From assembly GCA_048886685.1 (NCBI GenBank), contig JBHLKM010000005.1, forward strand, positions 106,958 to 170,957: 64,000 nucleotides of DNA, read 5' to 3'. Within the stretch, counting starts at the first letter, position 1, and each line of letters begins with the position of its first letter. Under the pieces are notes generated by a model that saw only the letters and a program-made list of their open reading frames with translations, was not told the origin of the DNA and did no database searches. This stretch comes from Candidatus Hodarchaeota archaeon (GTDB lineage: Archaea; Asgardarchaeota; Lokiarchaeia; Sigyniarchaeales; SOKP01). Position numbers and translations under genes: made by a program. Below, in pieces: positions 20,897-46,589 of this stretch.

Positions 20897-20967
20897 GCGC
20901 TCGTAGTATAGTGGTAATATGCTAGCTTCCCAAGCCAGCGTCCCGGGTTCAATTCCCGGCGGGCGCA
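20897..20967 (+). tRNA. tRNA-Gly(CCC)
   Basis: Acceptor GCGCTCG/CGGGCGC, anticodon loop TT-CCC-AA, T-arm CCGGG-TTCAATT-CCCGG; CCA not encoded. Confidence 0.93.
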
Positions 20968-21641: not shown

Positions 21642-22310
21642 TTAGTTTAATTTTTCTACCTTTCGTATTAAATCTCTAAGATGTAAATTTCCCATCCCGA
21701 ATTTTACCCGAAATGAAAACATCAAAACCAAATTGAATTTTATGCCATTTATCTCCATAAATTTAGAAATGAATTTCTCACTGTTTTCCAATTCCAAATA
21801 CATTTTCTTCACACTCACTAAGTTCCTTTCACTTCTAACCTCAAATTCTTTCATCGTGTTAAATAAAGTGTTTTGAGGTAATGAAGAATACAAGACTTTC
21901 CCTTCTTCATTGAATATGCCACTACCGATTATCTCTTTATCATCAACACAATCTCTTAATAGTTGAATGATGTTTTGAAATATCGCCATAGATGTGAAAT
22001 CATTTTCTTCGATATCAGTATCTTCCTTTTTTTCTAATACATTTACGCTGCTCTCATAAAGTTCCATTTTTGAAAATTCGAAATCTACTGTTTGATAACC
22101 TCTGACGACAAAATTTTTATCAACAAAAGCCTGAAAACTATGTTCACAATTCAATCCTGAAGGTATTGATACAGTAGTTAATTGTTTACTTTGGTTTATA
22201 ATTTTACCCGGTAACCTCAATTTTCGACTTTCTTTACAAATGGGGCATCTTGTAAGGATTTCTTCAAAAAATCTGTCAGAATTAGTTCTTATTCCATTTG
22301 GTAATGTCAT
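21642..22310 (-). CDS. Zn-ribbon plus roadblock/profilin-like domain protein
   Basis: CPIC...CEHSFQAFVDKNFVVRGY N-terminal domain; C-terminal IIGSGIFNEEGKVLYSSLP roadblock-like pattern. Confidence 0.6.
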   Translation of the reverse strand: MTLPNGIRTNSDRFFEEILTRCPICKESRKLRLPGKIINQSKQLTTVSIPSGLNCEHSFQAFVDKNFVVRGYQTVDFEFSKMELYESSVNVLEKKEDTDIEENDFTSMAIFQNIIQLLRDCVDDKEIIGSGIFNEEGKVLYSSLPQNTLFNTMKEFEVRSERNLVSVKKMYLELENSEKFISKFMEINGIKFNLVLMFSFRVKFGMGNLHLRDLIRKVEKLN

Positions 22311-22778: not shown

Positions 22779-23600
22779 ATGAAGTTAATGATAATCATGG
22801 AAAATTATCAAAATTCTAAGGAAAACCCGCTAGCAATGGAAATACTAGGAATTGGTTTAGTTAAAATTTCACAAATAAATATAGCAGCTAAATTTGATGT
22901 ACTCTTCCAGAAAGGAATAGGAGTACCACTTATTCAAAATGTTATTGAATTATATAAAAAAGAAATTATTCATAAAAAGAAGGGAAATTCAATAATTCCC
23001 TTAGAAAAGTTCACAATTTTTATTCACTATTTTGAAAATCACAATCATGATATATTAGTTATAATTTATATGGAAGAGAAAGATAGTTCAGTAAATTTTT
23101 CTAAATTATATTTTTTATCCAGAAATATAAATAGGAAATTTCAGTTAAATGAACCAGTATCAAGAATAATAGATGAATTTGATACAGCTGTGGAAATTCC
23201 CAGAACAGATGGGATCATAGCGATTTTTGTTATAGGTTCAGCAGGAAGTCCATACATATCTAAAATTAATAAGGGTAGATCTGAAATTGCAGATCATGAA
23301 GTTCACATAGGGGGCTTCATTTCCGCCTTATTATCATTTTCAAACACTATTATTGGAGAAGAAACAGGAGCTAAATTAAAAGAAATTAACTTTGGTAATC
23401 AACAATTCTATGTTATATCGAAGAGCAATGTGATATTTGCTTTTTTGGTAGAAAATATGAACTCATTAATTCAAAGATACATGTATTTACTTGCTGATGA
23501 ATTCCTCTACCAATTTAAAAATCTTATAAAAGATTTTAACGGGGATATAACCCCATTCAACTGTTTTGAAGAAAAAATAAATCAATATTTTATAATATAA
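22779..23600 (+). CDS. Longin-domain protein
   Basis: C-terminal IIAIFVIGSAGSPYIS...IGGFISALLSFS...LKEINFG...EFLYQF...FNGDITPF pattern typical of Asgard longin folds. Confidence 0.7.
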   Translation: MKLMIIMENYQNSKENPLAMEILGIGLVKISQINIAAKFDVLFQKGIGVPLIQNVIELYKKEIIHKKKGNSIIPLEKFTIFIHYFENHNHDILVIIYMEEKDSSVNFSKLYFLSRNINRKFQLNEPVSRIIDEFDTAVEIPRTDGIIAIFVIGSAGSPYISKINKGRSEIADHEVHIGGFISALLSFSNTIIGEETGAKLKEINFGNQQFYVISKSNVIFAFLVENMNSLIQRYMYLLADEFLYQFKNLIKDFNGDITPFNCFEEKINQYFII

Positions 23601-23618
23601 AAACGAGGTATAAAGAAA

Positions 23619-24155
23619 ATGATTCAAGACCAGGAATATAAAGGTATAAACCAAGTTTCCATCCTTATATTTCAAATTGGATGGGAGCAGTTCGTTATTG
23701 ACCTTCTTGATGTTAAAGAAATAATTCAAGCAGGGCAAATAAGAAAATTGCCAAAAAGCTTAGATTACATAGATGGAATTTATAATTACAGAGGAGAGAT
23801 AATACACGTTGTTAATTTAAAAAAAAAGTTAAACCTGAATGAGTATATGCTATATCGTTCTAAATACTCCTCTACAGAAGAAGAAAATTATAGTAACACA
23901 AAGAGATACATAATTATTTTAAAAGTGGATAATAACCTTATTGGATTTTATGTTGATCGCATTGTAAACATCGATCACATCGACATCAACGAAATTGTAG
24001 AACTTAGTCCTATTTTTCAAACAAGTGTAGCTATGGAATACATTAAAGGAGTTATAAATTTTAAGGAAAGACCAAGAATTATGCTTGATTTAGGCAAGAT
24101 TCTTAACGAAGTTGAGAAATTTAAAATCCAACAAGATCTGTCATCTTTGACATAA
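23619..24155 (+). CDS. cheW: Chemotaxis scaffold CheW
   Basis: VKEII...LPKSLDYIDGIYNYRGEIIHVVNL...IGFYVDRI...YIKGV. Confidence 0.93.
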   Translation: MIQDQEYKGINQVSILIFQIGWEQFVIDLLDVKEIIQAGQIRKLPKSLDYIDGIYNYRGEIIHVVNLKKKLNLNEYMLYRSKYSSTEEENYSNTKRYIIILKVDNNLIGFYVDRIVNIDHIDINEIVELSPIFQTSVAMEYIKGVINFKERPRIMLDLGKILNEVEKFKIQQDLSSLT

Positions 24156-24189
24156 AAATAAATTTAAAATAAAAAATGGAGTTGATTAA

Positions 24190-24585
24190 ATGACAAACGA
24201 AAAGAAAAAGGTTTTGATTGTGGATGACGCCCAATTTACTCGGAACATGCTAAAAAGTATCATTAGTAAGATTCAACTAATCGAAGTTATTGGTGAAGCT
24301 GCTAATGGTGTTGAAGCTATCGCCTTGTATAAAAAATTAAATCCTGATTTGGTTACTATGGATTTAGTTATGCCAGAAAAAGGGGGTATTGAAGCAACAG
24401 AAGAGATCTTAAAAATTAATCCGAAAGCGTTAATCGTTGTTGTATCAGCGTTGGGACAAGAAGCTCTAGTCCTTGAAGCAGCAAAGAAGGGAGCAAAAGA
24501 TTTTATACAAAAACCTTTCAAGACTGAACAAATACTTGAGGTAATGGATCGCATACTAAAAAATAAGAAAGAAGTTAAAAATTAA
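24190..24585 (+). CDS. cheY: Single-domain response regulator CheY
   Basis: VLIVDDA, PDLVTMDLVMP, VSALGQ, GAKDFIQKPF. Confidence 0.93.
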   Translation: MTNEKKKVLIVDDAQFTRNMLKSIISKIQLIEVIGEAANGVEAIALYKKLNPDLVTMDLVMPEKGGIEATEEILKINPKALIVVVSALGQEALVLEAAKKGAKDFIQKPFKTEQILEVMDRILKNKKEVKN

Positions 24586-24613
24586 ATTGTAAATTAAATA
24601 ATAGGGTGATTAA

Positions 24614-26698
24614 GTGGCAACTAACGACGATATTAAGCTTTTCATTAGTGAAGCAGAAGATCTTATTCAGAAGACTGAGGATGAGATTCTAAAACTAGAA
24701 GAGAATCCAAAAAATCCTAAACCAATTCAGGAACTTTTTTTTACATTTCACACACTTAAGGGCCTTACAGCCATGGCTGGATTTGAAAACCTTTCAAAAT
24801 TTTGTCATCACTTTGAAACCTTTTTAGAAAATACTAAAGATAAAGAGGTATCAACGAAAAAGCGAACAGATTTTATTGATATGTTATTTGAAAGTTTAGA
24901 TGTACTTCGTAATGTCTTAAAAAAAGTAAAAAAGGGAGATTTATCAGATATTGATGCCAAATTTGTAGAAGAGATAAAAGGAAGTTTTGATAATTTTGAA
25001 GCAGAATACGATATAACTTTTATCCAACCAATTTCTACAGATGAAATTACGAAAATTTTAAATGACACGCAGAAAAAACCTTATAAGATATATATCCGTT
25101 TAGAAGATACATGCGTTTTCAAAAAAGTAAGATTGTTTATCATCTTTCGAGCATTAAATGGAATTGGACGGATTTGTTGGACAAATCCTGCTCCAGAATC
25201 TTTAGAGAAAGCAATTTTAAAGAATGAATTTGAAATCTTTTATATCAGTCAAAAAAATAAAACTGAAATTTCTCATGTTTTAGACGAAATATTAGAGATT
25301 GAAAATATTGTTATTTCAACTTTAAAACCTAAAGAATTTCATGATATAATAGCAAATCTTAAGGAAAAATGGGAGAATGAACAATCAGTACCAGCAGACC
25401 ATGAAATTGAGGAGGAAAGCATCTATGAAGAGGAAGTAATAGATGAAGAACTTGAACGAGTTAGTAATATTTTAGAGGATTACTCAGACGATAGCATTAA
25501 AATTACTAGTGTAAAGGTAAATATAGAAAATTTAGAGGAATTAATGAATTATTTTGGAGAACTAGTTATAATGAAGAATCACATCAGCCAACTTCTAAAA
25601 GATAAACAAGATAGAGCCATAAATAGACTATTTGATAAAATGGACAAACCCTTTTTGGATATCCAAGAGATACTTTTTAAATTAAAGCTAATAAGAGTTG
25701 AATCAACTTTTCGAAAGTATAAAAGACTTGTTCGAGATGTAGCAAATGAAACAAGTAAAAAATTAAGATTAATTTTACAAGGGACAAATGTAGAGATTGA
25801 CCGAAAGATATTGGAAGAACTAAATTCTCCTTTAGTTCATCTCATACGAAATGCTATATATCATGGAATTGAATTACCAGCTGAAAGAAAAAAAAAGGGT
25901 AAGACCGATCTAGGAATTTTAAGGTTAAAAACATATAGAAAAGCAGGTTCTATTTATATTGAGATACAAGATGATGGGGCAGGTTTAGATTATGTCAAAA
26001 TCAAAGAGAAAATTGTTGCAAAAGGTTATTATGATCGTGAAGAAGTTAAAGAATTAACTGACGAAATCCTAAATAAATTTATTCTAATGCCAGGATTTTC
26101 GACTTTATCTGATGCTGACATAATTTCAGGAAGAGGAATGGGGCTAGCTATAGTTGCTGAGAAGATAAAAGAACTAGGAGGGGATTTTCTTATTGAATCG
26201 CAAAAAGATATTGGAACTAGATTTACTTTGGTAGTACCTTTTACACGGGCAATACTGAGGGCACAATTATTACAAGTTTCAAAGGATTTATTCGCAATCC
26301 CCACTGAGAATATTAAGCAAATTTATTTCTTCGATCAGAATAAGGTAGAATATATAGAAGGTAAGCAATATTATAAGATAGATTCGAGATTAATACCCGT
26401 CATCCATTTAGACCAGCACTTACGAATGGTAGACCTAATTGAAACAAACTCACATAAAAAAATAGCTGTTTGGTGTCAAAAAGATGAGGAAAATTCTGCT
26501 ATACTAGTTGCGGATAAACAACTTCAACAATTAGATGTGGTTGTAAAACCCTTTACATCCAGCTATTCTGATTCTCGTGATATTTTAGGATCTACAATTA
26601 CAGGAGAGGGTTCGATTTGTCTCATTCTAGATGCTTTGAGTATCATATCAAGACAGTCATCTGAATATGAAGTATCTTTAATAAATAAATTAAATTAA
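24614..26698 (+). CDS. cheA: Chemotaxis histidine kinase CheA
   Basis: Hpt FHTLKG, P2-like region, HLIRNAIYHGIE, DDGAG, PGFST, SGRGMGL, C-terminal CheW-like domain. Confidence 0.96.
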   Translation: MATNDDIKLFISEAEDLIQKTEDEILKLEENPKNPKPIQELFFTFHTLKGLTAMAGFENLSKFCHHFETFLENTKDKEVSTKKRTDFIDMLFESLDVLRNVLKKVKKGDLSDIDAKFVEEIKGSFDNFEAEYDITFIQPISTDEITKILNDTQKKPYKIYIRLEDTCVFKKVRLFIIFRALNGIGRICWTNPAPESLEKAILKNEFEIFYISQKNKTEISHVLDEILEIENIVISTLKPKEFHDIIANLKEKWENEQSVPADHEIEEESIYEEEVIDEELERVSNILEDYSDDSIKITSVKVNIENLEELMNYFGELVIMKNHISQLLKDKQDRAINRLFDKMDKPFLDIQEILFKLKLIRVESTFRKYKRLVRDVANETSKKLRLILQGTNVEIDRKILEELNSPLVHLIRNAIYHGIELPAERKKKGKTDLGILRLKTYRKAGSIYIEIQDDGAGLDYVKIKEKIVAKGYYDREEVKELTDEILNKFILMPGFSTLSDADIISGRGMGLAIVAEKIKELGGDFLIESQKDIGTRFTLVVPFTRAILRAQLLQVSKDLFAIPTENIKQIYFFDQNKVEYIEGKQYYKIDSRLIPVIHLDQHLRMVDLIETNSHKKIAVWCQKDEENSAILVADKQLQQLDVVVKPFTSSYSDSRDILGSTITGEGSICLILDALSIISRQSSEYEVSLINKLN

Positions 26699-26744
26699 AT
26701 TTTTTTTAAAAACAAATAATAAGTTTCACTGAATTAATAAAAAT

Positions 26745-28769
26745 TTGGAGGAAAAAGAAATGGGTTTTAAGAAAGTTAGTCAAGACGAATTAAAGACAAA
26801 TAGTGGTCCAGGATTTCTCGGTATGCCTATAAGAGAAGTAGGAAAAATTGTACAAACTAAAAAAAGAGAGAAAAAAATAGATTCAAATTCACTTGGCTCA
26901 ATCTCAGAGATACTGATTCTAAATGAAGAATTTTTAGAATATAAATATCAAAACACTGGGAAAAGGAACGCTTTAGCGGGTAATGGAAATATAGTAGTTT
27001 TCAACAACTCACTTAAAGATAGAATATGGGATGCTTTTTTAAAATTTACAGGAACTCAATTTGATAATCAAGATTCAGAAAAAGGTATGCATTTGGGAAT
27101 TTTTGAACCTAATTCAAACAAAATTTTGAAATATGAAATTGTTAATTCAGAAATATTACCAGATTTAGTGTCTGTAAATGAAAGCATAGAAAATCTGAGC
27201 CAAGATATTAAAAATGTAGGAAATGACTATAATGACGAAGAAGACAAAATAAGTAATAACCAAAAAAATCATATGTTGTTATTAGGAAAAGAAAATAAAG
27301 TAAAGTTTTCTATACTTGTAGAAAATAAATCTTCTTCTGTCTTAGAAAATATTAGACTTAAAAAACAATTCTCAAATAATTTCTATGATATAGACTTTAA
27401 AGGTTCAGTAAGTAAAAACATTGAAATCACTAGTAATTACATTGAATGTCCTATTAAGAATCTAAATCCAGGAGAGAAAATTGAAGTGATTCTTCATGCA
27501 AATATATTTCCAAAAAGGAAAGAAAATATTAGTACTGGAAGAATAGAGGTTTCATTTAATTTAAAGAATCAAATCATCTCAGAAGTGGAAATCAACCATT
27601 TCTCTGCATATTCTCATGCTATGCATGCTATTCGAAAAGTAGAGAAAGATCATGCTCCAAATCACTGGGATTGTTCTTTAATATTCGGAAATCGTAGTGA
27701 TTTCAAGATGAAATTAAACTCAATCTTGATTTTAGATAAATCTAAAAAGAATAAAATATTAGAACTTGATTTTAGTGACAAAATGGTAATAACAGTCCCA
27801 GGAGAGAGCTATAAAACGGAACATTTTGATTATCAAGATGAAAAAGAACCAACCTTTTCAAGAAAAGTAGATTATTCTGTCGATTATAAAGTTGAGAAAA
27901 ATTCTATGATTACAGTTCAAGTTGAAAATAGTTTATTTAAAGTAGCTAATGCATTGATCAAAAAGAAAATTGAAGAGCAGGAAATTAAGTCATTTGAAGA
28001 ATCAAAAGTTAACACTGAATTTATTGTGAGGAATCGAGGGACTATGCCAATAAAAGGGATTATAGCTCAAGAAAAAATACCTCAAGACTTTTTACCACCT
28101 AGGGATGTCTCAAATTTTCAATTTTTAAATTCTGCAGGAGAATTAAAACTTGATGATATAGCTTTAAAAATTAGTCCTGATGATGACGATCCAACACACG
28201 AACACGTTTTAGAATTGAATGTTAACTTAGAAACTAATCATAGAAGTAATTTAATAGGAGTAGATGACTTTTTAGAGGTTAAATACCCTTTAACTGCCGT
28301 AACTCCTAATTATGAAAAAGATTATGACTTTCTATTGGAGATACAATCCTATTATTCAAAATTCTTAGAGTCTGAACAAAATGAATATTATGTAATCACA
28401 GATAATATCTCTGGTATGGATAAATCCGCGTTACAAATTACTCACAAACGTCGTAAATTAATGATAGGAAAAGAAATCTTTCCTGGAAGGGACAGCAATG
28501 AATTTGCTATTTATATAACTGCAAAAAATGGTTCAAACATAAAATTATCAGATGTAAATGTTACTGACACATTCCCAGATTCGTTTGAATTAGTTTCTGC
28601 AAATATTGACCACAAACTTAGCAAAGTTGATAAGTCGGGTGAACGTAAAATATCTTTCAATTTAGATCTTTTACAACCATATCAAGAGAGAGAAATAATG
28701 TACTATTTAAAAAACATTACAGGAAAAGAGATTAAATTTTCAGAATTAGAATCATTTTTTATTGGTTAA
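26745..28769 (+). CDS. Large beta-rich protein with repeated Ig-like (DUF11-like) modules, no signal peptide
   Basis: Repeated motifs VENKSS..LENI, VRNRGT..IKGI..EKIPQDF, AKNGSN..LSDVNVTDTFPDSF. Confidence 0.6.
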   Translation: MEEKEMGFKKVSQDELKTNSGPGFLGMPIREVGKIVQTKKREKKIDSNSLGSISEILILNEEFLEYKYQNTGKRNALAGNGNIVVFNNSLKDRIWDAFLKFTGTQFDNQDSEKGMHLGIFEPNSNKILKYEIVNSEILPDLVSVNESIENLSQDIKNVGNDYNDEEDKISNNQKNHMLLLGKENKVKFSILVENKSSSVLENIRLKKQFSNNFYDIDFKGSVSKNIEITSNYIECPIKNLNPGEKIEVILHANIFPKRKENISTGRIEVSFNLKNQIISEVEINHFSAYSHAMHAIRKVEKDHAPNHWDCSLIFGNRSDFKMKLNSILILDKSKKNKILELDFSDKMVITVPGESYKTEHFDYQDEKEPTFSRKVDYSVDYKVEKNSMITVQVENSLFKVANALIKKKIEEQEIKSFEESKVNTEFIVRNRGTMPIKGIIAQEKIPQDFLPPRDVSNFQFLNSAGELKLDDIALKISPDDDDPTHEHVLELNVNLETNHRSNLIGVDDFLEVKYPLTAVTPNYEKDYDFLLEIQSYYSKFLESEQNEYYVITDNISGMDKSALQITHKRRKLMIGKEIFPGRDSNEFAIYITAKNGSNIKLSDVNVTDTFPDSFELVSANIDHKLSKVDKSGERKISFNLDLLQPYQEREIMYYLKNITGKEIKFSELESFFIG

Positions 28770-28813
28770 ATCAAATTATTTAAAAAAAAAGAAGAAAAAC
28801 TGGAGGAAAAATA

Positions 28814-29665
28814 ATGAATTTACAGTTTTATGAAACAATACAAGATAAGTCAAAAAAATATTTGACATATTTAATTGACCAGATATTGCCAAAATTCACA
28901 ATCAGTGAATTTAAATATTTTTTAGAAGATGTAACAGAGAATACTAGTAAAACCAGTAAGGGAAGAAAGGGAACAAATGAAGAACAAACAGTAGAATTTA
29001 TCAAAACTGGTGATGACAATGAAAAATTTGCAGATTTATCAAAATTAGATGAAAATCAAATAAAGACTCTATTTCAAATTTTCATCAGTAGGGAAATTAA
29101 TGACAAAATGGCAGTGAGATGGCGATTTTATCAATATATAAAATATCACCGAGGTCTAAATATAAAAGTTATAAAACTTAATAGAACATCTGAGCATTTC
29201 ATTGATTTCATTATTGAAACAGAAGAAAATGAAAAATTAATTGTTTCATGCCATGATATTCTGGAATTAAATAGCTTTAAGGAGGTTTTAAATAAAACTC
29301 CGGAGTTTGCCAAAAATCAAAAATTGAACCCTGATAGGATGATTTTTTCTGTTTACAAATCATTTCGAAACATACCAATTGAAGAGCCGTTCAAAATCGA
29401 AAACAAAGAGATAACTCCAGAGTTATGGATCGAATGGATTGAAGAAAATCTTCCTTTTAATAAAGAAGATCTTTTAATAGTCAATAATTCAGAATTAAAA
29501 CTAGCAGGATTTAACTTTACTAGTACGGAGGATTTGCTTAATTACGTATACTATAATTCGAAGGGTGGTCAAATTTCAATTTTTAAACAATCAGATTTTT
29601 TTACTGAAGCCTCTGATAATGAAGCTGAAATAGAATTACTTTGGAAAGGAATTATGATTAAATAA
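28814..29665 (+). CDS. Hypothetical protein within the che operon
   Basis: 283-aa ORF with upstream GGAGG; no motif confidently recognised. Confidence 0.7.
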   Translation: MNLQFYETIQDKSKKYLTYLIDQILPKFTISEFKYFLEDVTENTSKTSKGRKGTNEEQTVEFIKTGDDNEKFADLSKLDENQIKTLFQIFISREINDKMAVRWRFYQYIKYHRGLNIKVIKLNRTSEHFIDFIIETEENEKLIVSCHDILELNSFKEVLNKTPEFAKNQKLNPDRMIFSVYKSFRNIPIEEPFKIENKEITPELWIEWIEENLPFNKEDLLIVNNSELKLAGFNFTSTEDLLNYVYYNSKGGQISIFKQSDFFTEASDNEAEIELLWKGIMIK

Positions 29666-29697
29666 TATACAAAATAAGAAGGTAAAAGGTAATAAAA

Positions 29698-31677
29698 ATG
29701 ATAAAAAGTGAATATGAAAAAATTGAATATGGAGAAAATATAACTGCTGTTATTATAGAAGTTCAACATGAGAAATATCTAATTGAAGTTGAGAATGTCA
29801 AAGAGATATATCCACCTGGAGAATCTATAATTCCAGTGCCATTATCAGAAAAATCAATTGTCGGTGTCATTAACATCAGAGGAGAGATTTATTCCATTAT
29901 ATCATTACGGCATAATATTTTTGAAGATAGTGTAGATTATGGTTTAAATGAGCATTCAAGGATTTTACTTTTGGAATGGGAAGATTTAAATATTGCCTTA
30001 CTAGTGGACTCAGTAATCGGTGTTAGAGAATTTCCAATTTCAATTTTTAAACAGCAAGGTACAATTGTAAAAACCAATATAGATTTTAAATTTATAAAAT
30101 TAACAGGTGTTTTTCAAGATGAACCATTTATTCTTTTAGATTTGGATGCTTTAATCCAACCTTACACTAAGGCTTCCGAAAGAAGAATTGAAAAGAAAAC
30201 TAACGTAATCCCTATAGTACCGGAAAAACCAGAAGTTATACCTAAAAAAGCTAAAAAAGTTATAGAACCTGAAATAAGTTATACGGAATCTACCGTCATT
30301 CTCCCACAATCATCTAAAATGCCAAAATTAACAAAGATCCCTAATGTTGAAAAAATTGAATTGTCAGCTGATCAAAAAGATATCCTGAGAGAAATGGGGA
30401 ATATAGGAACTGGAAATGCAGTTACAGCATTATCACGACTCATCAAAAAGAAAATTGATGTAACTCTTACAGATGTAGGAATTATCTCTTTTGATCAATT
30501 ATCAGATCAGTTTGGTGGACCTAAGGAGAGGGTATGTGGAATTTTTTGTCATTTAGATGAACCTTCCCAATCTACTATATTGAATATTTTTGAGATGAAA
30601 CCTTTAATGAGTTTAATCGCAACTTTAGCTGGAAAAAAATCAAAAATTGATCCTAATAAAGTGAAAACTAAAAAAGATCTTGATGAATTCGCAATTTCAA
30701 CAATTACGGAAATGGGAAACATTATGGCGGGACACTATGCATCAGCATTAGCAGATTTATTGGAAACTAAATTAATGATCGATATACCAGAATTTGCAAT
30801 GAGTAATGCAGGTGAATTGGGGGAATTTCTCTCTCAAGAGCTTAATTCGATTGCTGACTTTATAATTATTATTAAAACATCTGTAAAGGTTTCTGATTTA
30901 AAATTAAAAGGTATTTTCTTTTTAATCCCAGGCATTAGAACTTTAAATATGTTTTTCAATAAACTTGGAATTGAACAGGAAATATCTGTTGGAAATTTAA
31001 AGGATAGCCAAGAATCAAAACAATTAGATGTTAACAAGTTGAAACTCACAGAACTTCAGAGAGATGCCCTACAAGAAGTTGGAAATATAGGTGCTGGAAA
31101 TGCTGCAAACGCTTTAGCTCAAATGATTAATAAAAGAGTTGACATTAATATTCCATTAGTAGAAATGGTTGAACTGGATGACTATGCAAATAAAATTAGT
31201 AAAAAAGATGAAAAACTTCTAGTTGCTTGGAGTAATATTATTGGAAAAACGAGAGCAACTGTTCTTACAATGTTTAATGTTAAAGATGCAATTGATATAA
31301 CCTCGATAATCGTTGATGATCCCGGTAAAAAGAAAATTGATTTAAGAAAAACTATTTCCAAGGCAGATGATTTTCCAGAACTATATAAAAGCGCTATTTC
31401 AGAATTGGGGCATATTTTAGGAAGTCATTATGTTAGTGCTATAGGAGATCTTTTAGGTATACGTTTAATGACCGAACCCCCTGATATGAGTGTGGATACT
31501 GGTCAACAACTATTTAGTATATTGAAAGAAGAAATAGGGCTCTTAAAGAAATTATCTCTGGTAATTACCACAAGTGTTATTATTAAAGATATTGAAATTG
31601 TAGGTACATTCTTATTTATTCCAAGTCTCGATACTTTACAAGATCTTTTAGACGCTTTACTAAATTTCTACTCTTAA
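29698..31677 (+). CDS. CheW-CheC-CheC fusion protein
   Basis: N-terminal CheW (IVGVINIRGEIYSII, LLVDSV), Pro/Lys-rich linker, two CheC domains (EMGNIGTGNA, EMGNIMAG, EVGNIGAGNA, ELGHILG). Confidence 0.9.
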   Translation: MIKSEYEKIEYGENITAVIIEVQHEKYLIEVENVKEIYPPGESIIPVPLSEKSIVGVINIRGEIYSIISLRHNIFEDSVDYGLNEHSRILLLEWEDLNIALLVDSVIGVREFPISIFKQQGTIVKTNIDFKFIKLTGVFQDEPFILLDLDALIQPYTKASERRIEKKTNVIPIVPEKPEVIPKKAKKVIEPEISYTESTVILPQSSKMPKLTKIPNVEKIELSADQKDILREMGNIGTGNAVTALSRLIKKKIDVTLTDVGIISFDQLSDQFGGPKERVCGIFCHLDEPSQSTILNIFEMKPLMSLIATLAGKKSKIDPNKVKTKKDLDEFAISTITEMGNIMAGHYASALADLLETKLMIDIPEFAMSNAGELGEFLSQELNSIADFIIIIKTSVKVSDLKLKGIFFLIPGIRTLNMFFNKLGIEQEISVGNLKDSQESKQLDVNKLKLTELQRDALQEVGNIGAGNAANALAQMINKRVDINIPLVEMVELDDYANKISKKDEKLLVAWSNIIGKTRATVLTMFNVKDAIDITSIIVDDPGKKKIDLRKTISKADDFPELYKSAISELGHILGSHYVSAIGDLLGIRLMTEPPDMSVDTGQQLFSILKEEIGLLKKLSLVITTSVIIKDIEIVGTFLFIPSLDTLQDLLDALLNFYS

Positions 31678-31737
31678 ATTTATTCTTTTCTAAAAATATA
31701 TTTAATATATTTTTTTTTTCAATTTTAAGAAAAGTTT

Positions 31738-32340
31738 TTGAAACTTAAAACAAGTATTTTGAGCCCAAAAAAAGATGAACGAATTATGTTAAGAACTGGT
31801 TATTACGATTATATATATAAGGTAGATGGAGAAACAATAAAATTAAAACCAGAAAAAATTTTTGATCCTTCAGGAGTATATTTAATCGTAGATAAAGAGT
31901 TAAAACTCATATGGATTTGGGCAGGTAGCCATTCTCGTTTATTTCATAGGTATATGGCTGCGAACTGGGCTGGGAAATTAAAAACTAAAAAAAAATTCTA
32001 CAATTTCAAGTATGAAGTTATTAAACAAGGATTAGAACCCACTGAATTCGGTATAATTTACAAAGAAATTAAGGAAAATAGAACTGATTTAACATATCCC
32101 GGCCAATCGAGAGATGATTTAATTAATAGTGAACCATTAGATGAGTATATTTCAAGAACTTCACCCAGTCAAGCTAAAACAATGGACTTGCTTTCGGATA
32201 GCACTTTAATATCTAAATCTGATAAATCTCGAATAAGAAAGATATTATCTGAAATAAAGGAAATGCAAAGCCATATTAAATATTCTATTGAACATATTCA
32301 ACAACGTTTTACTGAAATTGAAAAAATATTAGGTAGATAG
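31738..32340 (+). CDS. Single gelsolin-domain protein with C-terminal coiled coil; alternative ATG at 31786
   Basis: FDPSGVYLIVD..LIWIWAGSHSRLFHRYMAANWAGKL...EVIKQGLEPTEF fits the gelsolin core (xxDxxxxIxxWxGxxS...A...A...QGxExxEF); heptad-like tail. Confidence 0.8.
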   Translation: MKLKTSILSPKKDERIMLRTGYYDYIYKVDGETIKLKPEKIFDPSGVYLIVDKELKLIWIWAGSHSRLFHRYMAANWAGKLKTKKKFYNFKYEVIKQGLEPTEFGIIYKEIKENRTDLTYPGQSRDDLINSEPLDEYISRTSPSQAKTMDLLSDSTLISKSDKSRIRKILSEIKEMQSHIKYSIEHIQQRFTEIEKILGR

Positions 32341-33371
32341 TGAGTTCAAAATTGATCAAAATTGAAAATATTCAAATGGATGGAGATTATTATTCTTTAC
32401 TGCTTGAATATTTGGGTAATAAAACAGCGTTAAATTTTGAATATTATCGTAGGAATTTAGTGGAGAGGAGATTAAAAGCAAGAGTGATTCGGGTTAAATG
32501 TAGCACTCTTCATTCTTATTATTATTATATCAAAGATAATCCTGTTGAGATTGAGAAATTTATCGACAGTTTTAACATTAATTATTCTTGTTTTTTCAGA
32601 AATTGCGAAGTTTTTCAGCAATTTGAAAATTTTTTTTTGAAGTGTTTAAATTATAAGAGAGAAGATATTCTTACCAATTTGAAACCAAAACGCAAAGGAA
32701 AATCAAAAGGTTCATTAAAAAATAAAAAAAATTCAGATAATAGAAGTCAATATAGGAAATTAATGATAATGAAATCTGAAAATGCACTTAAATTTTCTGA
32801 AAAAACATCTCTCTATAGAAAAATAAATGGAGCTTCAAGATCGAAGGAAATTATCAGAATATGGTCATGTCCTTATGCTTCTGGTGAAGAACCTTATTCG
32901 ATTGCAATAATTTTAGATAATTTGAAAAACCAGATACCTGAATTTCCTCAATTTAAGATTATTGCATCAGATATTGATAATGATGCTATTAATAAAGCAC
33001 ACATAGGACTTTATAATGAAAATGTCATGCGAGAAATTTCAAAATTCAATGAAGAGAATTATTTTATAAAAAATGAAAGTAAGTTTGGTTATAAATACTT
33101 AATTAATGAGGACCTCAAGAAATATGTAGAATTTATTGAGGAAGATATTACAAAAGGTTATGAAAAAACTAAAAAATATGATATAATATTTTGTCGATAT
33201 CTTCTAATTTATATAAGTCGAGAGGCACGGAACAATTTCTTGGAAATTATTGAAAAGCAATTAAACCCTGGCGGGTTATTGATTTTAGGTAAAACAGAAA
33301 CCTTATTTAATTCATATAATACGCTTAAATTAATCGACTCCCGTAATCATATCTATTTAAAAATTAATTAA
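32340..33371 (+). CDS. cheR: Chemotaxis methyltransferase CheR
   Basis: INYSCFFRN, IRIWSCPYASGEEPYSIA, ASDID, YDIIFCRYLLIY, GGLLILGKTE. Confidence 0.93.
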   Translation: MSSKLIKIENIQMDGDYYSLLLEYLGNKTALNFEYYRRNLVERRLKARVIRVKCSTLHSYYYYIKDNPVEIEKFIDSFNINYSCFFRNCEVFQQFENFFLKCLNYKREDILTNLKPKRKGKSKGSLKNKKNSDNRSQYRKLMIMKSENALKFSEKTSLYRKINGASRSKEIIRIWSCPYASGEEPYSIAIILDNLKNQIPEFPQFKIIASDIDNDAINKAHIGLYNENVMREISKFNEENYFIKNESKFGYKYLINEDLKKYVEFIEEDITKGYEKTKKYDIIFCRYLLIYISREARNNFLEIIEKQLNPGGLLILGKTETLFNSYNTLKLIDSRNHIYLKIN

Positions 33372-33389
33372 AGATGAATTTATTAGTAA

Positions 33390-34535
33390 ATGTCAATCAG
33401 AGTATTACTTGCCGAGGATTCCGCATATCAAAGAAAAATTATTTTTGAAATGATTACATCGAATGAGGAAATTGAAGTCTTAGATGTTGCTAAAAATGGA
33501 AAGGAGGCAATTCAAAAGATAGGAGAGCATAATCCAGATGTAATTCTATTAGATCTTATAATGCCTGAAGTCGATGGATTATCTGTTCTCAAATTCCTTT
33601 CAGAACACTATCCAATCCCAACGATAGTTTTTACAGGTCTCAAACTTGAATCTTTGGATGATTCTGTTCAGGCCCTACTTTTGGGTGCTTTTGATTTTAT
33701 TATTAAACCGACTGGCTATTGGGAAGAGGAATTTCCTAAATTTAAAGAAAAGCTGATTTCTAGCATTTTATATGCTGGTAAAATAAAAAAAAGTTATGAA
33801 AAACGTAACACACTTATTAAAGAATCAATTTACACCCATTTCAGTTCGGATATAGAAGATAAAAAAAACATAACTAGCAAACCAGTAAAACCAGTAGCTT
33901 CTGAAATATCAAAAATAACTTCTTCAGATATAACAAATTTAAAATCTAATATTATAGTAATAGGAACCAGTACTGGAGGACCTAGAACCTTAAAATCAAT
34001 TTTAAAAAAGATTCCAAAAGATTTTCCTAGCCCTATTTTAATGGTGCAGCATCTAGATGCTTTTTTTATGAAGCAACTCGCTAAATCTTTAAATGATGTT
34101 TGTGAAATTGAAATTAAAATCCCAGTAAATGGTGAAAAGATTCAGCCGGAAAAAGTATACCTTAGCCCTGGAGGTAATCATATGCAAGTTGTAATGAGAA
34201 ATAACTCCCCCTGTATTAAGATTTTTAAAGGTGAGCCAGTTAATTTTTGCATGCCCTCTGTAGATGTATTATTTTTTTCTGTCGCAGAAATTTATAAACA
34301 ACATTCAATGGGCATTCTTTTAACAGGATTAGGAGATGATGGTGCAGCAGGTTTAGATGCTATTAAATTAGCTGGAGGGAAAACAATAGCTGAATCTGAA
34401 GAAACTTGTGTTGTGTATGGAATGCCAAAAGCAGCTGTGAAAAGCGGTGCTGCTAAATTAATTCTTCCAAATTATCAGATTCGAGATTATATGATGAAAT
34501 TTGCTAAAAACTTTACTTTTGATCTTAAAAACTAA
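33390..34535 (+). CDS. cheB: Chemotaxis methylesterase CheB (receiver plus esterase)
   Basis: Receiver LDLIMP; catalytic GTSTGG, VQH, PSVDVLF, LTGLGDDG. Confidence 0.95.
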   Translation: MSIRVLLAEDSAYQRKIIFEMITSNEEIEVLDVAKNGKEAIQKIGEHNPDVILLDLIMPEVDGLSVLKFLSEHYPIPTIVFTGLKLESLDDSVQALLLGAFDFIIKPTGYWEEEFPKFKEKLISSILYAGKIKKSYEKRNTLIKESIYTHFSSDIEDKKNITSKPVKPVASEISKITSSDITNLKSNIIVIGTSTGGPRTLKSILKKIPKDFPSPILMVQHLDAFFMKQLAKSLNDVCEIEIKIPVNGEKIQPEKVYLSPGGNHMQVVMRNNSPCIKIFKGEPVNFCMPSVDVLFFSVAEIYKQHSMGILLTGLGDDGAAGLDAIKLAGGKTIAESEETCVVYGMPKAAVKSGAAKLILPNYQIRDYMMKFAKNFTFDLKN

Positions 34536-34553
34536 CTAAATAAGTAATTTAAA

Positions 34554-35102
34554 ATGACCGAACACCACCAAATAGGTAAAATTGAAGAGACAGACGGAAA
34601 TGGAGTAATCAATTTACCTATTGGTCATTATGCTATTGTTAATAATAAATATAGATTAGGCAAATTATATCCTAAGATTTCTATTTATGGAATAGGTTCA
34701 TGCATAGCTTTAATTCTTTGTGATTACATCAATTATGTTTGTGGGATGTCTCATATTTTGCTTCCCAAAACTACAAAAAAAATTATTAAATATCCTCATA
34801 AGTTTGCTAATTTATCTGCAATCCTCTTAATGCAAGAATTAATAAATTATGGAGCTGAAAGAAGGCATATTAAGGCAATTATCATAGGAGGATCCAGGAT
34901 ATTTGATTTGGATGACAATCTTATGGGATTTGATAATATTGGTTCCATAAAAGAAGAATTGAATAAATTAAATATTGATATTATTAAAGAAGATACAGGG
35001 GGATCAAAAGGGAGAATTGTCATTTTTGATTCTCAAGATTTTTCCTTATCTGTTAGATCTACTGGAGAAAATGATTTCAATATATTTACAAACTTAGAAT
35101 AA
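34554..35102 (+). CDS. cheD: Chemoreceptor glutamine deamidase CheD
   Basis: GIGSCIAL, GMSHILLP, KFA, IIGGSRIF, EDTGGSKGR. Confidence 0.93.
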   Translation: MTEHHQIGKIEETDGNGVINLPIGHYAIVNNKYRLGKLYPKISIYGIGSCIALILCDYINYVCGMSHILLPKTTKKIIKYPHKFANLSAILLMQELINYGAERRHIKAIIIGGSRIFDLDDNLMGFDNIGSIKEELNKLNIDIIKEDTGGSKGRIVIFDSQDFSLSVRSTGENDFNIFTNLE

Positions 35103-35134
35103 AAATAATTAGAAAATGAAAAGAGAGACTAAAA

Positions 35135-35809
35135 TTGAACCCAAATATTAATAATGACAAACAATTTGAAGGATTTAAACTAACATCAGAACAGTTAGAT
35201 ACGTTGATGGAACTAGGAAATATTGGTTCTGGACATGCAATAACAGCCCTTTCAAAATTATTAAACAATGAAATAGAAGTTTCCTTAACATCAGCCGAGG
35301 TTATTCCTTTTTGGAAGGTTCCTGAATTGTTCGATACTTCTAATGTAGAGGTATTTGGGATCTATTCTGAGATTCCATTCAATTCAGATATGTCAATAAT
35401 TCAAATATTCACAAAAGAATCACTCATTAATTTAATTAATCTCCTTAATATCAATGATACGATTTTAATTGAAAAGATAAGAAATATTGAGGATCTAGAT
35501 GATCTTTCTATAAGTATAATAACTGAAATAGGTAATATATTAACTGGACATTATGCAAGTGCTTTGGCAGATACATTATCAACTAAAATAATCCCGAATG
35601 TTCCAACCGTAGCACTTGATACAATAAATGCGATGTTAAACGGTATAATTGCTAAATACTCTCAATTATCAGATTATCTAGTAATAATAAGAACGAAAAT
35701 AGGATTACCAGAAATTAAATTAAATTGTATAATGTGTTTTATCCCTTCTATAAACATTTTAACAAATCTATTTACCCTTTTAAATATAAAATATAATTTA
35801 AATCTATAG
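35135..35809 (+). CDS. cheC: CheY-P phosphatase CheC
   Basis: ELGNIGSGHAITALS and EIGNILTG...PNVP. Confidence 0.9.
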   Translation: MNPNINNDKQFEGFKLTSEQLDTLMELGNIGSGHAITALSKLLNNEIEVSLTSAEVIPFWKVPELFDTSNVEVFGIYSEIPFNSDMSIIQIFTKESLINLINLLNINDTILIEKIRNIEDLDDLSISIITEIGNILTGHYASALADTLSTKIIPNVPTVALDTINAMLNGIIAKYSQLSDYLVIIRTKIGLPEIKLNCIMCFIPSINILTNLFTLLNIKYNLNL

Positions 35810-35815
35810 AAAGAA

Positions 35816-36775
35816 ATGTCAAGAATAAACATGTTAGAAGATCTGCTTTCCAATCTTTTAAATGAAGTAAACGATCTTTCTGCAGCTTTAGTTGTAGACT
35901 TAGATGGGCTAATTATTGCTAAAAAATCAAATGGTGGATTTGATGAAGAATTAATTGGTGCTATTATGGGTATTCTTGAACAAACAATCAATAGGATTAA
36001 AAAGTATACAGAAACGTCATTTGGAAGTGGAACTCTTGACACTAATGAGTTTCAATTATTTTATATAGAATTAAGTAAAGTAGTCCCAGCAATTTTTGTA
36101 TTGGTTGGGGACCAATATTCAAATATTAACCAATTTATTCCTTACGCATATATAGTAGCAGAAAAAATTTCATTGATTTTAAATAATCGAGAAATCCCTG
36201 TAAATCTTCCAAAATTAACTAATTCTGCAGAAATAATATTAGAACCCGAGTCTAATACCCAATATGGCAATAATAATGTAAACAAAATAGTTGTCGTTGG
36301 ATCTGAGGCGGTTGGGAAAAGTTCATTGGTTGAAATGTATAGGGAAGGAATATTTGAAGAAATATATAAACCCACGATTGGAATTTCAATTAAAGAGAAA
36401 AAACTTCAAATTTCCAAAGACTTTAATTTATTCCTATATCTCCTTGACTTAGGGGGTCTTAAAAGTTTTGCCAAAATTCGCAAATTTTATTATAATTATT
36501 CAAACGCAGTTCTAATTTTGTTTGATTATACCAAAACGGAAACATTTAATAATATCTCTGATTGGATTGAAGAATTACGTAAATTTATCAAAAATAAGTC
36601 GATCCCAGTTGTTCTCATAGGAAATAAAATCGACCTTGTTGAAAATCGTGAAGAAATTAGGATTAAGGCAGAAAATCTAGCAGAGCAATATAACATCCCA
36701 TTCTTTGAAACTTCAGCATATACTGGTGAAGGTATAGATGAATTGTTTACTTACTTAATTTCAACCTTGTTTTAG
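35816..36775 (+). CDS. Roadblock/LC7-small GTPase (Rab-like) fusion
   Basis: N-terminal ALVVDLDGLIIA (roadblock); G1 GSEAVGKS, G2 PTIG, G3 DLGG, G4 NKID, G5 ETSA; no C-terminal Cys prenylation motif. Confidence 0.9.
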   Translation: MSRINMLEDLLSNLLNEVNDLSAALVVDLDGLIIAKKSNGGFDEELIGAIMGILEQTINRIKKYTETSFGSGTLDTNEFQLFYIELSKVVPAIFVLVGDQYSNINQFIPYAYIVAEKISLILNNREIPVNLPKLTNSAEIILEPESNTQYGNNNVNKIVVVGSEAVGKSSLVEMYREGIFEEIYKPTIGISIKEKKLQISKDFNLFLYLLDLGGLKSFAKIRKFYYNYSNAVLILFDYTKTETFNNISDWIEELRKFIKNKSIPVVLIGNKIDLVENREEIRIKAENLAEQYNIPFFETSAYTGEGIDELFTYLISTLF

Positions 36776-36845
36776 CATTTAAATAAGTATAAATTATAGT
36801 GCACTACTATTTATTAGATCAATTAGACTTTATAGGGAGATTTAG

Positions 36846-38210
36846 TTGTCAATCGACGTTATAATTGCTGACGATTCTGCGTATTTAAGAAAAAGCATTG
36901 CTGATATTCTTAAAGGCAGTGAAATAGTAAATATTTTAGAATTTGCTAAAGATGGAGAAGAAGCCATTAAGTTTGTCAAGAAATTTAGCCCAGATGTTTT
37001 AGTTTTAGACTTAGTAATGCCTAAAATGAATGGATTAGATGCTTTCAAAGTGATCATGGAAGAGCGCCCAACACCTACAGTTATTCTCTCAGCCATAAGT
37101 CCTAAAAACCTTGATTCATCTATTCAGGCACTTTTAATGGGAGCCTTTGATTATATTATAAAACCGGGGGGAATTGGTGCTAAAGATTTACCACGATTCC
37201 GTGAAGAATTACTAGCTAAAGTACTTTTAGCTTCTCAATCACAAATCAAGAAAATTTTTAGAAAAGAAGATGGAGTTTATAGAAAGAATAAATCGATAAG
37301 GCAAGAAATAGTTGATCAAATCTTTGATTTTGGGCAATATTTGAATACCCTAACACCTATTACAGAAGCTGAGGAAAATCAACAAGTAATAGATATTGGT
37401 AAAACTAAAGAAGTACAGAAAGAGTTAACAACTAAATCAATAATAAAGCAAACTGAAAAAGTAGATGAATTGCGAATAGAGAAATCTATAAAACCTAAAG
37501 ATCCAGTAAATTTATCTAGTATTAATGCTACTAAGCCCTTTATAAGAACTTCATTACAGAAATCTCTACCAAGTTTGCAGAAAAGAAAAGAACCACCTTA
37601 CAATCCTAACCTAACTCCCATTAAAGGAGTTTCTCTCACATCAAATATAATTGTAATTGGTGCTAGTGTAGGTGGACCTCGTACTATCACTACTATATTA
37701 AAAGAAATTCCTAGAAATTTCCCTGCTCCTATTTTAGTAGTTCAACATTTATCAGCTCATTTTACAGAAGCTTTTGCGGATAATTTAGATATGGAATGTA
37801 AATTAAAAGTTAAAGTGGCGACTAATGGAGAGTATATTAAACCTAGAGAAATTTATATTGCTCCAGGAGAAAGTCATATGGAAATTTCAGTTGATGATAA
37901 AAGACCTTGTATTAAAATATATAAAGGTAAACCAGTAAACTTTTGCATGCCTTCAATAGATGTTTTATTCTATTCAGCAGCAAGAGTGTATCGAGATCGA
38001 ACTATGGGGGTATTACTAACTGGTATGGGCTCTGATGGTGTTGAGGGGTTAGCTTCTATCCAAAAAGTAGGTGGGAAAACAATTTCAGAATCTGAGGAAA
38101 CATCTATTTTATTTGCTATGCCAAAATTCGCAGCAGAAAAGGGTTATGCTGATTTGGTTTTACCAAATTACTCAATTTACTCTGAAATTATTAAATTTGG
38201 CAGAAAATGA
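36846..38210 (+). CDS. cheB: Second CheB with a long interdomain linker
   Basis: Receiver LDLVMP; GASVGG, VQH, PSIDVLF, LTGMGSDG. Confidence 0.93.
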   Translation: MSIDVIIADDSAYLRKSIADILKGSEIVNILEFAKDGEEAIKFVKKFSPDVLVLDLVMPKMNGLDAFKVIMEERPTPTVILSAISPKNLDSSIQALLMGAFDYIIKPGGIGAKDLPRFREELLAKVLLASQSQIKKIFRKEDGVYRKNKSIRQEIVDQIFDFGQYLNTLTPITEAEENQQVIDIGKTKEVQKELTTKSIIKQTEKVDELRIEKSIKPKDPVNLSSINATKPFIRTSLQKSLPSLQKRKEPPYNPNLTPIKGVSLTSNIIVIGASVGGPRTITTILKEIPRNFPAPILVVQHLSAHFTEAFADNLDMECKLKVKVATNGEYIKPREIYIAPGESHMEISVDDKRPCIKIYKGKPVNFCMPSIDVLFYSAARVYRDRTMGVLLTGMGSDGVEGLASIQKVGGKTISESEETSILFAMPKFAAEKGYADLVLPNYSIYSEIIKFGRK

Positions 38211-38248: not shown

Positions 38249-40444
38249 CTACCAAGAAAGACCTTTGAGAAATTTTATATCTTGGATGATTCTTTGAGAT
38301 TCGTGTTTTGGAACCTCCATGAAAGCAAAGAATTCATTCTGCCAAAAAGCCTTTCCAGAAGTTGTACTTCGTATATCTTCAGCAAATTTAATGGAATTTC
38401 GTACTGATAATAATATTTCAATGATTGCTTGGTATTCTTTCTCTTGATCAATGGTTTTAATTTTCGCAGAATATTTTGAAAGTAGTGAAATGGTATTTTT
38501 AATTTGATCAGGGGGGAGTTGTATTATCGTGTGATAAATTGGCTCTAAAAGGATTAATTCTGCTTCCTTTAATCCCTTTCTTATGGCTTCATAAAACATT
38601 GATGATAAATCTGTGAATACACTTTCCTGTTGAGTAGTATCAATGGCTAAATCCTCAATTTTAATTTTAAGTTCGGTTAGTTTCTCATTACATAATGGTC
38701 CGTTTAAATGGATTTTCTCAATAATTTCTATTATTGCATTTTTATATAAATCATCAATTTCCTTACTTGCATTGTAAATTACTATATTTTGATCTTCATC
38801 ACAAATCCAAAATCTTTCAATTTCTTTATCAGTTAATCCTGTATTTTCTTTTAAAACATCCATTAATACCTTAAAAGGTTTTATTGTTCTATAATCAATA
38901 TTTTGAAAAAATTTAACAGTATTATCATCTAACCTTTCAACAATTAGTATTAATTTGTTTTTACCATCCGAAGATATTACTTCTATCGAAGATGAATTAT
39001 ATCGGCATGATTCTTTAAAGACCGCTCGTGGTTCCGAAGTCGAAATATTTACTCCTCTCTTTCCTATTTCATGAGCCGTGACTTCAAGATGAAGAGGCCC
39101 CATTCCAGATAATAAAAATTCTCCAGTTTCCTCATTGATTTCAAATTTTAGATTTGGATCCTCAATTAGCATATTCTCAATTAATTCTTTCATTTTATCC
39201 AAATCTCTTAGAAATTCTGGTTCAATTGATACTGTCACTACTGGAGTGGTTACATATTTTACACTTTCGAATGGAACCATTTTATCTATATGATTGCTAT
39301 CAATTATAGTTTCACCACTTCGGATAAGTTTTAATCCCTCAATTGCTACGATATTACCCACAGGGATCCTATCTACCTGTTCTCTTCTCTGACCCATGAA
39401 AATAGCAATTCTTTGAATTGTTTCATAATTATTTTCATTCAAAAGAAAAACTTCATTTCTTTTACCACAATTTCCGCAAAATATTCTTCCGGTAGCAATT
39501 AAGCCATGTTTATCAGCTTGAACTTTGCTTAAACAGATTATTAATGGTCCATTTGGATCACAGTTTATCATCGCTTTTCCTAAATCAGAATTTAGATCAC
39601 CATCCCATATTTTTCCAATTCTATATTTTTGAGCCTCAATTGGATTCGGTAAATGGTCTACAACCATTTCTAATATGGCTTTATGAATTGGAAAGTAAAA
39701 AGCCAAGTCTGTATAGCTTTCTTTTGTATAAGTTTCTTTGTTATATCTTTCTCTAATATCTTTAAAAGTTAAATTGGATTTTTCTAGGATATTTAACGTA
39801 AATCCCCATTTATGAAGTGCGGATCCAAAGGCAACATTTCCTGATAATGGTGATACTTTCCATTTTTTATTAAATGGATGATCTGCATATCTATCAATAA
39901 GTATATTAAAGGATTTTATAATCCTAGTATATTTTTTTTTAATCTGATCATCTGAAAGTTTTAATTCTCTAATTAACCTATCAACTTTATTTATAAAAAG
40001 GACCGGTTTAACTCCTTCTTGTAATGCCTGTTTAATTACGGTCTCAGATTGGGTTATGATCTCTTCAACAGCATCTACAACAATGACAACACCGTCAATA
40101 AGTCGCAAAGCTCGAGTTACCTTACCACTAAAATCTAAATGTCCTGGTGTATCAACTAAATTTATAAGAAAGGGTTCATGACCTTCAAGAGATTTCTCAT
40201 AATATAGTGAAATATTAGCAGATTTCATAGTTATTCCACGTTGCTGTTCTTCTTCAAGGTAATCTAAAGCACGTGCCTCACCTGCTAGATCTGGTGATAA
40301 AAAACCAGCCTCACTTAGTAAAGAATCAGAAAGGGTAGTTTTACCATGATCGATATGACCTGCTAAAGCAGTATTACGAATATTCTTAGTTAATTCCATT
40401 AAGTTAAGTATTTCAGTGATTTCCTTTCTACGAGGCATTCTCAA
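38249..40444 (-). CDS. Elongation factor 2 paralogue (aEF-2p type)
   Basis: GHIDHGKTT, RGIT, DTPGH, NKVD, GMGPLHLE; domain IV lacks the HRG diphthamide loop. Confidence 0.88.
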   Translation of the reverse strand: MRMPRRKEITEILNLMELTKNIRNTALAGHIDHGKTTLSDSLLSEAGFLSPDLAGEARALDYLEEEQQRGITMKSANISLYYEKSLEGHEPFLINLVDTPGHLDFSGKVTRALRLIDGVVIVVDAVEEIITQSETVIKQALQEGVKPVLFINKVDRLIRELKLSDDQIKKKYTRIIKSFNILIDRYADHPFNKKWKVSPLSGNVAFGSALHKWGFTLNILEKSNLTFKDIRERYNKETYTKESYTDLAFYFPIHKAILEMVVDHLPNPIEAQKYRIGKIWDGDLNSDLGKAMINCDPNGPLIICLSKVQADKHGLIATGRIFCGNCGKRNEVFLLNENNYETIQRIAIFMGQRREQVDRIPVGNIVAIEGLKLIRSGETIIDSNHIDKMVPFESVKYVTTPVVTVSIEPEFLRDLDKMKELIENMLIEDPNLKFEINEETGEFLLSGMGPLHLEVTAHEIGKRGVNISTSEPRAVFKESCRYNSSSIEVISSDGKNKLILIVERLDDNTVKFFQNIDYRTIKPFKVLMDVLKENTGLTDKEIERFWICDEDQNIVIYNASKEIDDLYKNAIIEIIEKIHLNGPLCNEKLTELKIKIEDLAIDTTQQESVFTDLSSMFYEAIRKGLKEAELILLEPIYHTIIQLPPDQIKNTISLLSKYSAKIKTIDQEKEYQAIIEILLSVRNSIKFAEDIRSTTSGKAFWQNEFFAFMEVPKHESQRIIQDIKFLKGLSW

Positions 40445-46583: not shown

Positions 46584-46589
46584 TTCTTT

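Follow-up and report, generated by a model that had tools for sequence, protein, structure and literature searches.

A conserved F1-type chemosensory gene cluster with mu-homology, nuclease-fold and gelsolin accessory genes in a Lokiarchaeial genome: a candidate link to actin

Layout and Che core of the gene cluster

A 64,000-nucleotide stretch of contig C5 (JBHLKM010000005.1) from a Candidatus Hodarchaeota archaeon, hereafter the window, carries a chemosensory (che) gene cluster at positions 22779–38210. The genome comprises 47 contigs and 4.4 Mb; completeness was scored at 100% and contamination at 8.4%. The nearest relatives are metagenome-assembled genomes of Promethearchaeota. Fourteen co-oriented genes lie on the plus strand (Table 1), with the coordinates and order given by a first-pass annotation made from the sequence. 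They comprise a Che core of F1-like type, whose motifs are intact, and five accessory genes, which encode a longin-domain protein, a mu-homology domain (MHD) protein, a 283-aa protein, a gelsolin and a GTPase. All Che assignments (CheW, CheY, CheA, CheW-CheC-CheC, CheR, two CheB, CheD and CheC) are supported by Pfam. The likely start codons of the longin, MHD and gelsolin genes were taken from orthologs. With these starts, the intergenic gaps range from −1 to 108 nt and are short, as noted earlier. Ratios of nonsynonymous to synonymous substitution of 0.06–0.27 indicate purifying selection on each of the 14 genes.

Table 1. Features of the che cluster and its upstream neighbor (window coordinates)
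Feature	Position	Strand	Basis or remark
Zn-ribbon family gene, divergent	21642..22310	-	weak homolog within a che cluster of genome G138
longin-domain gene	22788..23600	+	C-terminal longin; N-terminal domain of ~130 aa
cheW	23619..24155	+	Pfam, E 1e-26
cheY	24190..24585	+	Pfam; phospho-acceptor Asp and switch residues intact
cheA	24614..26698	+	domains P1-P2-P3-P4-P5
MHD protein gene (annotated earlier as Ig-like)	26760..28769	+	predicted soluble; structure model
che-exclusive 283-aa protein gene (annotated earlier as hypothetical)	28814..29665	+	possible PD-(D/E)XK-like fold, structure model
cheW-cheC-cheC fusion	29698..31677	+	Pfam
gap with oligo-T run	31678..31785	+	kept in orthologs; may be a terminator or attenuator
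gelsolin-domain gene	31786..32340	+	ortholog profile; stop codon overlaps cheR start
cheR	32340..33371	+	Pfam
cheB, receiver and methylesterase	33390..34535	+	Pfam
cheD	34554..35102	+	Pfam
cheC	35135..35809	+	Pfam
roadblock-Rab-like GTPase fusion	35816..36775	+	Pfam Ras family and weak Robl_LC7
second cheB	36846..38210	+	Pfam

The gap preceding the gelsolin gene measures 50–195 nt in orthologs and usually contains a run of 5–12 T. A second T run follows cheA within the genus. Because of the longer gap and these T runs, a single uninterrupted operon is not established. Judged from the sequence, the conserved T-tract may place gelsolin on a second transcript.

The CheA architecture by Pfam is Hpt-P2-dimer-HATPase-CheW. 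The presence of P2, the lack of a receiver domain, and the occurrence of CheC and CheD alongside CheR and CheB all match the F1 class. The P1 histidine is intact. The best NCBIfam models, CheA_Halo (356 bits against a cut-off of 950) and CheY_Halo, both scored below cut-off, and the CheA tree was built without euryarchaeal or Bacillus references. The CheY alpha4-beta5 face is nearly invariant among close clusters. The core of CheA, CheW, CheY, CheR, CheB, CheC and CheD, including CheA-P2, is the same as in the archaeal F1 system of Halobacterium and Methanococcus. It differs from that system, which works through CheF, ArlCDE and the archaellum, in that CheF, ArlDE and archaellin are missing, a CheW-CheC-CheC fusion is present, and five eukaryote-signature or lineage-specific accessory genes are interspersed. 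The cluster is a conserved F1-type variant that appears to be unpublished; a search of the incompletely covered literature found no paper describing a Lokiarchaeia chemotaxis-gelsolin gene cluster.

CheA also shows a lineage-conserved deviation from canonical CheA, in that the N-box Asp is mostly Tyr and an Ala follows the G2 box.

The accessory proteins and their co-inheritance

The protein first annotated as Ig-like contains Ig domains and folds as an adaptin MHD. In the structure model (mean predicted local distance difference test score 82.8), the MHD spans residues ~45–390, apparently with an inserted Ig domain, and further Ig domains lie besides. Comparison with VIA gave Z = 17.2 to AP2 mu2 (root-mean-square deviation 3.6 Å, 226 of 252 residues aligned). 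The top eight rows were all MHDs, and the characteristic two-subdomain beta-sandwich is present. Foldseek with the full model returned generic Ig-chain matches; VIA alone resolved the MHD. A housekeeping paralog matches PF00928 weakly (E 5e-5). The fold is shared with AP mu, delta-COP and muniscins (Z 13.1–17.2 for most AP mu, delta-COP and SGIP1 entries). The che protein differs from these in lacking a fused N-terminal longin, in its extra Ig domains, in its location in a che cluster, and in a conserved N-terminal motif of ~23 residues that is absent from the housekeeping paralogs. By eye, this motif resembles the CheY-binding peptide of FliM, but a common helix cap or a membrane anchor could account for it as well. 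Asgard homologs of AP domains were reported earlier (Eme 2023, PMC10307638); the present locus supplies a functional setting for an Asgard MHD protein.

A housekeeping MHD gene of the same genome (C17:34690-38921, L095) lies near a gene that looks, by eye, like a small nuclease and near a gelsolin of ProGel size, echoing the trio in the che cluster.

The 283-aa protein (model score 88) matched many nucleases in the structure comparison, which points to a possible PD-(D/E)XK-like fold, with a modest best Z of 7.8. Asp131 is invariant, and in 29 aligned sequences the catalytic Lys is absent at the expected strand, a position taken from secondary structure. Because the catalytic Lys is missing, the protein is probably not a nuclease. 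The family is small, with 68 matches among 1.8 billion representatives. In a set of 398 Asgard genomes, 85 of which encode CheA, all 47 carriers of the protein are CheA-positive. Where the contig was long enough to show the surroundings, distant homologs (four of four) belong to che clusters and adjoin an MHD gene; two more are on contigs too short for context. The 283-aa protein, the longin and the gelsolin, searched singly, matched no Pfam or NCBIfam family.

The gelsolin assignment was upheld by the ortholog profile, which matches the Thor ProGel (7C2F) at E 2.2e-7, followed by 2DGel and villin. The protein has one gelsolin domain, a linker and a C-terminal amphipathic helix. The helix aligning with the long helix of ProGel has six invariant positions. 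A single domain homologous to ProGel, followed by a helical C-terminal extension, recalls the layout of 1DGelX, whose Thor member severs actin in vitro (PMC7444086). Unlike ProGel and 1DGelX, the che gelsolin belongs to an ortholog group that is specific to che clusters, with short members (~184 aa) and a putative actin activity. Orthologs (E below 1e-35) occur in 41 genomes, all of them CheA-positive. The gene follows cheW-cheC in 31 of the 32 clusters that span this position, across nine genera. It is better retained than cheR, which is missing or a remnant in 5 of 16 clusters of the genus. Four actin-family genes are encoded in the genome, whose Lokiactin gene lies at C16:1465-2610.

The longin assignment stood for the C-terminal half only. 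Here Fuz_longin_1 was matched by 6 of 26 orthologs (best E 5e-5), and hhalign gave a probability of 98 against the genome's own single longins. For the N-terminal half the hhalign probability was below 1, so a "double longin" was not confirmed. Longin paralogs adjoin genes for methyl-accepting chemotaxis proteins (MCPs). In several genera an MCP homolog lies in the cluster directly upstream of longin. The present genome has a single MCP, on C1 and outside the che cluster, which adjoins a truncated paralog of the cluster longin; relatives have 1 to 21 MCP matches, a variation in number like that of taxis systems.

The fifth accessory protein is, as first annotated, a roadblock-GTPase, with a Pfam Ras-family domain and a weak Robl_LC7 N-terminus. 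It has Rab-like G1, G2, G4 and G5 motifs. The switch-II Gln is replaced (by L, K, F, I or A) in 15 of 15 orthologs and is present in the core paralog. Like the Myxococcus Frz-MglA/MglB system, the cluster combines a Che system with a Ras-superfamily GTPase and a roadblock domain, and an analogy had been drawn on this basis. It did not survive comparison with the MglA-type signature, which is a G3 motif without the DxxG Asp together with a stand-alone MglB. The cluster GTPase is Rab-like, has the DxxG, lacks the switch-II Gln, is fused to its roadblock domain and is dispensable, and Frz belongs to another Che class. Its best solved matches are Rab/Ypt proteins, and MglA is absent from the top 60. 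Strain MK-D1 was noted to have few cases in which a GTPase gene is paired with roadblock and longin genes (PMC10933270); the cluster offers a rare genomic example of this pairing.

Cluster gene order is kept over nine genera, and the synteny of accessory and che genes is strongly conserved, as the first-pass annotation required of its proposal. That annotation had stressed gelsolin, GTPase and longin; the deepest-conserved accessories are instead the MHD and 283-aa proteins. In a quick tree, the CheAs of clusters with this pair fall into a single group (SH-aLRT 90), and both genes are found in every cluster of that CheA lineage. The pair always abuts cheW-cheC and is retained even where CheA identity is only ~25%. 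Of the accessories, this pair is the oldest part. Clusters with gelsolin make up a subgroup nested within the lineage, with full support, and gelsolin joined the cluster later than the pair. By conservation the accessories thus rank with the MHD and nuclease-fold pair first, gelsolin second, and longin and GTPase last.

For a random 15.4-kb stretch of the genome, the chance of containing a gelsolin gene is ~0.03, a longin ~0.05, an MHD gene ~0.01 and a small GTPase ~0.24. On a marker tree, about 14 block losses within the genus took the gelsolin, MHD, 283-aa and GTPase genes together with che; a few of these could be assembly gaps. Remnants show deletion in three genomes (G187, G193 and G226). 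Longin persists after che loss in G192 and G224.

Output of the pathway

The absence of cheF and archaellum genes had been claimed for the window. In the whole genome, profiles for CheF (PF04283), archaellin, ArlDE and T2SSF found no match, and control profiles were positive. Of the archaellum components, archaellins, ArlCDE and ArlJ were not found. Among 80 CheA-positive Asgard genomes, CheF was matched in one, by a partial match fused to leucine-rich repeats, and archaellin was matched in one. Nearly all CheA-positive Asgard genomes thus lack CheF and archaellin matches, and the cluster narrows the candidates for the output of their Che systems to five expressible soluble proteins.

One genome, G138 (closed, 6,035,313 bp), which is probably Ca. 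Lokiarchaeum ossiferum, has archaellin matches and, by eye, an operon resembling arlB/G/F/H/I/J (C1 at ~859–866 kb and 5215–5217 kb), yet no CheF match. These genes contrast with the description of L. ossiferum as crawling. In the same genome, genes for an actin-family protein and for a GTPase of Rab-like type are found at a distance of ~3 kb from a che cluster and on the strand opposite to it (L071:14394-16295), and that cluster holds a longin gene and two Zn-ribbon-type genes.

Lokiarchaeia carry chemoreceptor arrays, and cheA, cheB, cheC, cheD, cheR, cheW and cheY were reported in Lokiarchaeia earlier (27 of 97 metagenome-assembled genomes; PMC9834061). For Ca. L. ossiferum, the passages found in that paper describe neither cluster anatomy nor output. 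Actin-dependent crawling of Lokiarchaeia through Lokiactin is documented (PMC13716822). The passages searched in the two papers make no connection between crawling and chemoreceptor arrays. We propose, at about even odds (roughly 0.5), that protrusion driven by actin is biased by the pathway, which would act through the pair of MHD and nuclease-fold proteins and, in the present clade, through the dedicated gelsolin. If expressed, the cluster would encode a working F1-type pathway with an output other than the archaellum. Membrane MCPs would signal through CheW and CheA to CheY, and CheR, CheB, CheD and CheC would provide adaptation. Phosphorylated CheY, or a complex of CheA with CheW-CheC, would engage the MHD protein and its constant nuclease-fold partner, which would replace CheF as a cortical adaptor. 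Gelsolin, optionally with longin and a slow Rab-like GTPase, could then convert the signal into local severing or capping of Lokiactin, and protrusion growth and retraction during crawling would be biased.

The first-pass annotation had suggested that the Che pathway may steer actin dynamics rather than a rotary motor; two of its refuting conditions, an archaellum with CheF elsewhere in the genome and a lack of conserved synteny, did not hold, and the idea is plausible. A bolder reading, which we hold only tentatively, is that bacterial-type two-component chemotaxis steers the actin cytoskeleton directly, with phosphorylated CheY acting through an MHD adaptor complex on gelsolin and the small GTPase. 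If it is correct, the cluster represents a class of Che output that differs from the flagellum, the archaellum and the pilus, and directed amoeboid migration would have a precursor in prokaryotes.

Several observations weigh against an actin output. Gelsolin is absent from the f2 and f3 sister clusters and from G128, which falls within the gelsolin-bearing subgroup; gelsolin is therefore not an output common to all Asgard Che systems. In 3 of 16 clusters of the genus, and in the g5 clusters, the GTPase is missing. G138 has other che clusters, with a distinct CheA lineage and without the module. A conserved T-tract precedes gelsolin, the conservation of the CheY surface can be explained by binding to CheA-P2 and CheC, and gelsolin-like genes number ~10 in the genome, small GTPases 77. 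Since linked genes will be lost together whenever a contiguous stretch is deleted, differential retention is stronger evidence than co-loss. Migration of L. ossiferum is mostly random, and the crawling paper (PMC13716822) makes no mention of chemotaxis.

The main rival explanation, conceivable if somewhat unlikely, is that the accessories are positioning or assembly factors. The MHD and nuclease-fold proteins would then scaffold receptor arrays or localize them at the membrane in the manner of ParC/ParP, gelsolin and GTPase would be no more than co-regulated motility genes, and the CheY target would be encoded elsewhere. MHDs act as membrane-cargo adaptors in eukaryotes. The constant position of the pair next to cheW-cheC, the longin paralogs beside MCP genes and the T-tract ahead of gelsolin would all suit such a role, as would the similar CheY output faces in other Asgard che clusters that lack the pair. 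A scaffold fails to explain, however, why a dedicated gelsolin is confined to che-positive genomes and is retained more than cheR.

Control of a type IV pilus or Tad-like machine is improbable. The earlier statement that pilus genes are missing holds in the window; genome-wide it is not strictly true. A VirB11/ArlI-like ATPase locus (C1:406186-412493) has a T2SSE match above cut-off and an intact Walker A motif, and bacterial Che systems of the type IV pilus (Tfp) class do exist. Against a role for this locus, the ATPase occurs in 99 of 133 family genomes whether or not che is present, and searches missed it in several genomes that do have che. The genome gave no T2SSF match, no class III pilin motif was found, and the Che core is F1-like rather than PilG/H/ChpA-like. 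The ATPase is the only ArlI-like one in the genome and scored 107 against a cut-off of 550. Its locus adjoins the ribosomal L3/L4/L23 operon and includes pilus-like neighbors.

This locus (L091:6187-12494) comprises the ATPase gene with a long N-terminus, genes for a small protein with one transmembrane segment and for a multi-transmembrane protein, and a weak match to A24 peptidases.

We equally doubt that the pathway controls gene expression or the cell cycle, through DNA binding by the nuclease-fold protein or through neighboring PAS kinases. The PD-(D/E)XK-like fold, the PAS kinases near or within several clusters and the single MCP would fit this function. The fold match is modest, though, and lacks the catalytic Lys, CheA contains P2 but lacks a receiver domain, the adaptation set is full, and relatives hold up to 21 MCPs. 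That the accessories are mere hitch-hikers in a genome rich in eukaryotic signature proteins is very improbable: paralogous GTPases, longins and gelsolins are many and longin can outlast che, but gene order is kept over nine genera, the MHD and 283-aa pair persists in distant clusters and no member of the nuclease-fold family turned up in genomes without che, which largely refutes the idea for the MHD, nuclease-fold and gelsolin genes and leaves it for longin.

Chemoreceptor, dispersed che and neighboring genes

The sole MCP (C1, L093:9379-12726 in genome G000, the present genome) is short, lacks an obvious periplasmic sensor and overlaps the gene of a conserved 105-aa membrane protein; the two may form a split sensor. 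Downstream of it lie a kinase/receiver gene, a longin gene and a probable roadblock gene. Further che genes are dispersed over the genome: a CheR-CheD fusion on C6 (L099:3916-6048), a third cheB at C1:201580, a second cheR at C21:48292 and a second CheY-like gene at C3:95986. In G273, G163 and G151, orphan proteins of ~560–570 aa (L068, L069 and L070) resemble the N-terminal ~280 residues of CheA (Hpt-P2) and lack kinase motifs.

The divergent Zn-ribbon gene upstream of the cluster has ten paralogs in the genome, and its tie to che is therefore loose. Compared with genes of f3 clusters, it showed weak similarity for L071 and none detected for L123 or L076. On its right side the che block has a conserved border, formed by an EF-2-like GTPase gene (38249–40444), a FusA/Efl1-type paralog, together with purN and fttA; this border marks the empty sites. 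The window also carries tRNA-Gly(CCC) at 20897–20967 and tRNA-Gln(CTG) at 46510–46584. The tRNA-Gly gene lies 1.8 kb upstream of the cluster; its 3' end is not repeated within the window, which gives no indication of an integrated island. At 57580–59286, two neighboring genes encode coiled-coil proteins that look paralogous and share an N-terminal start motif.

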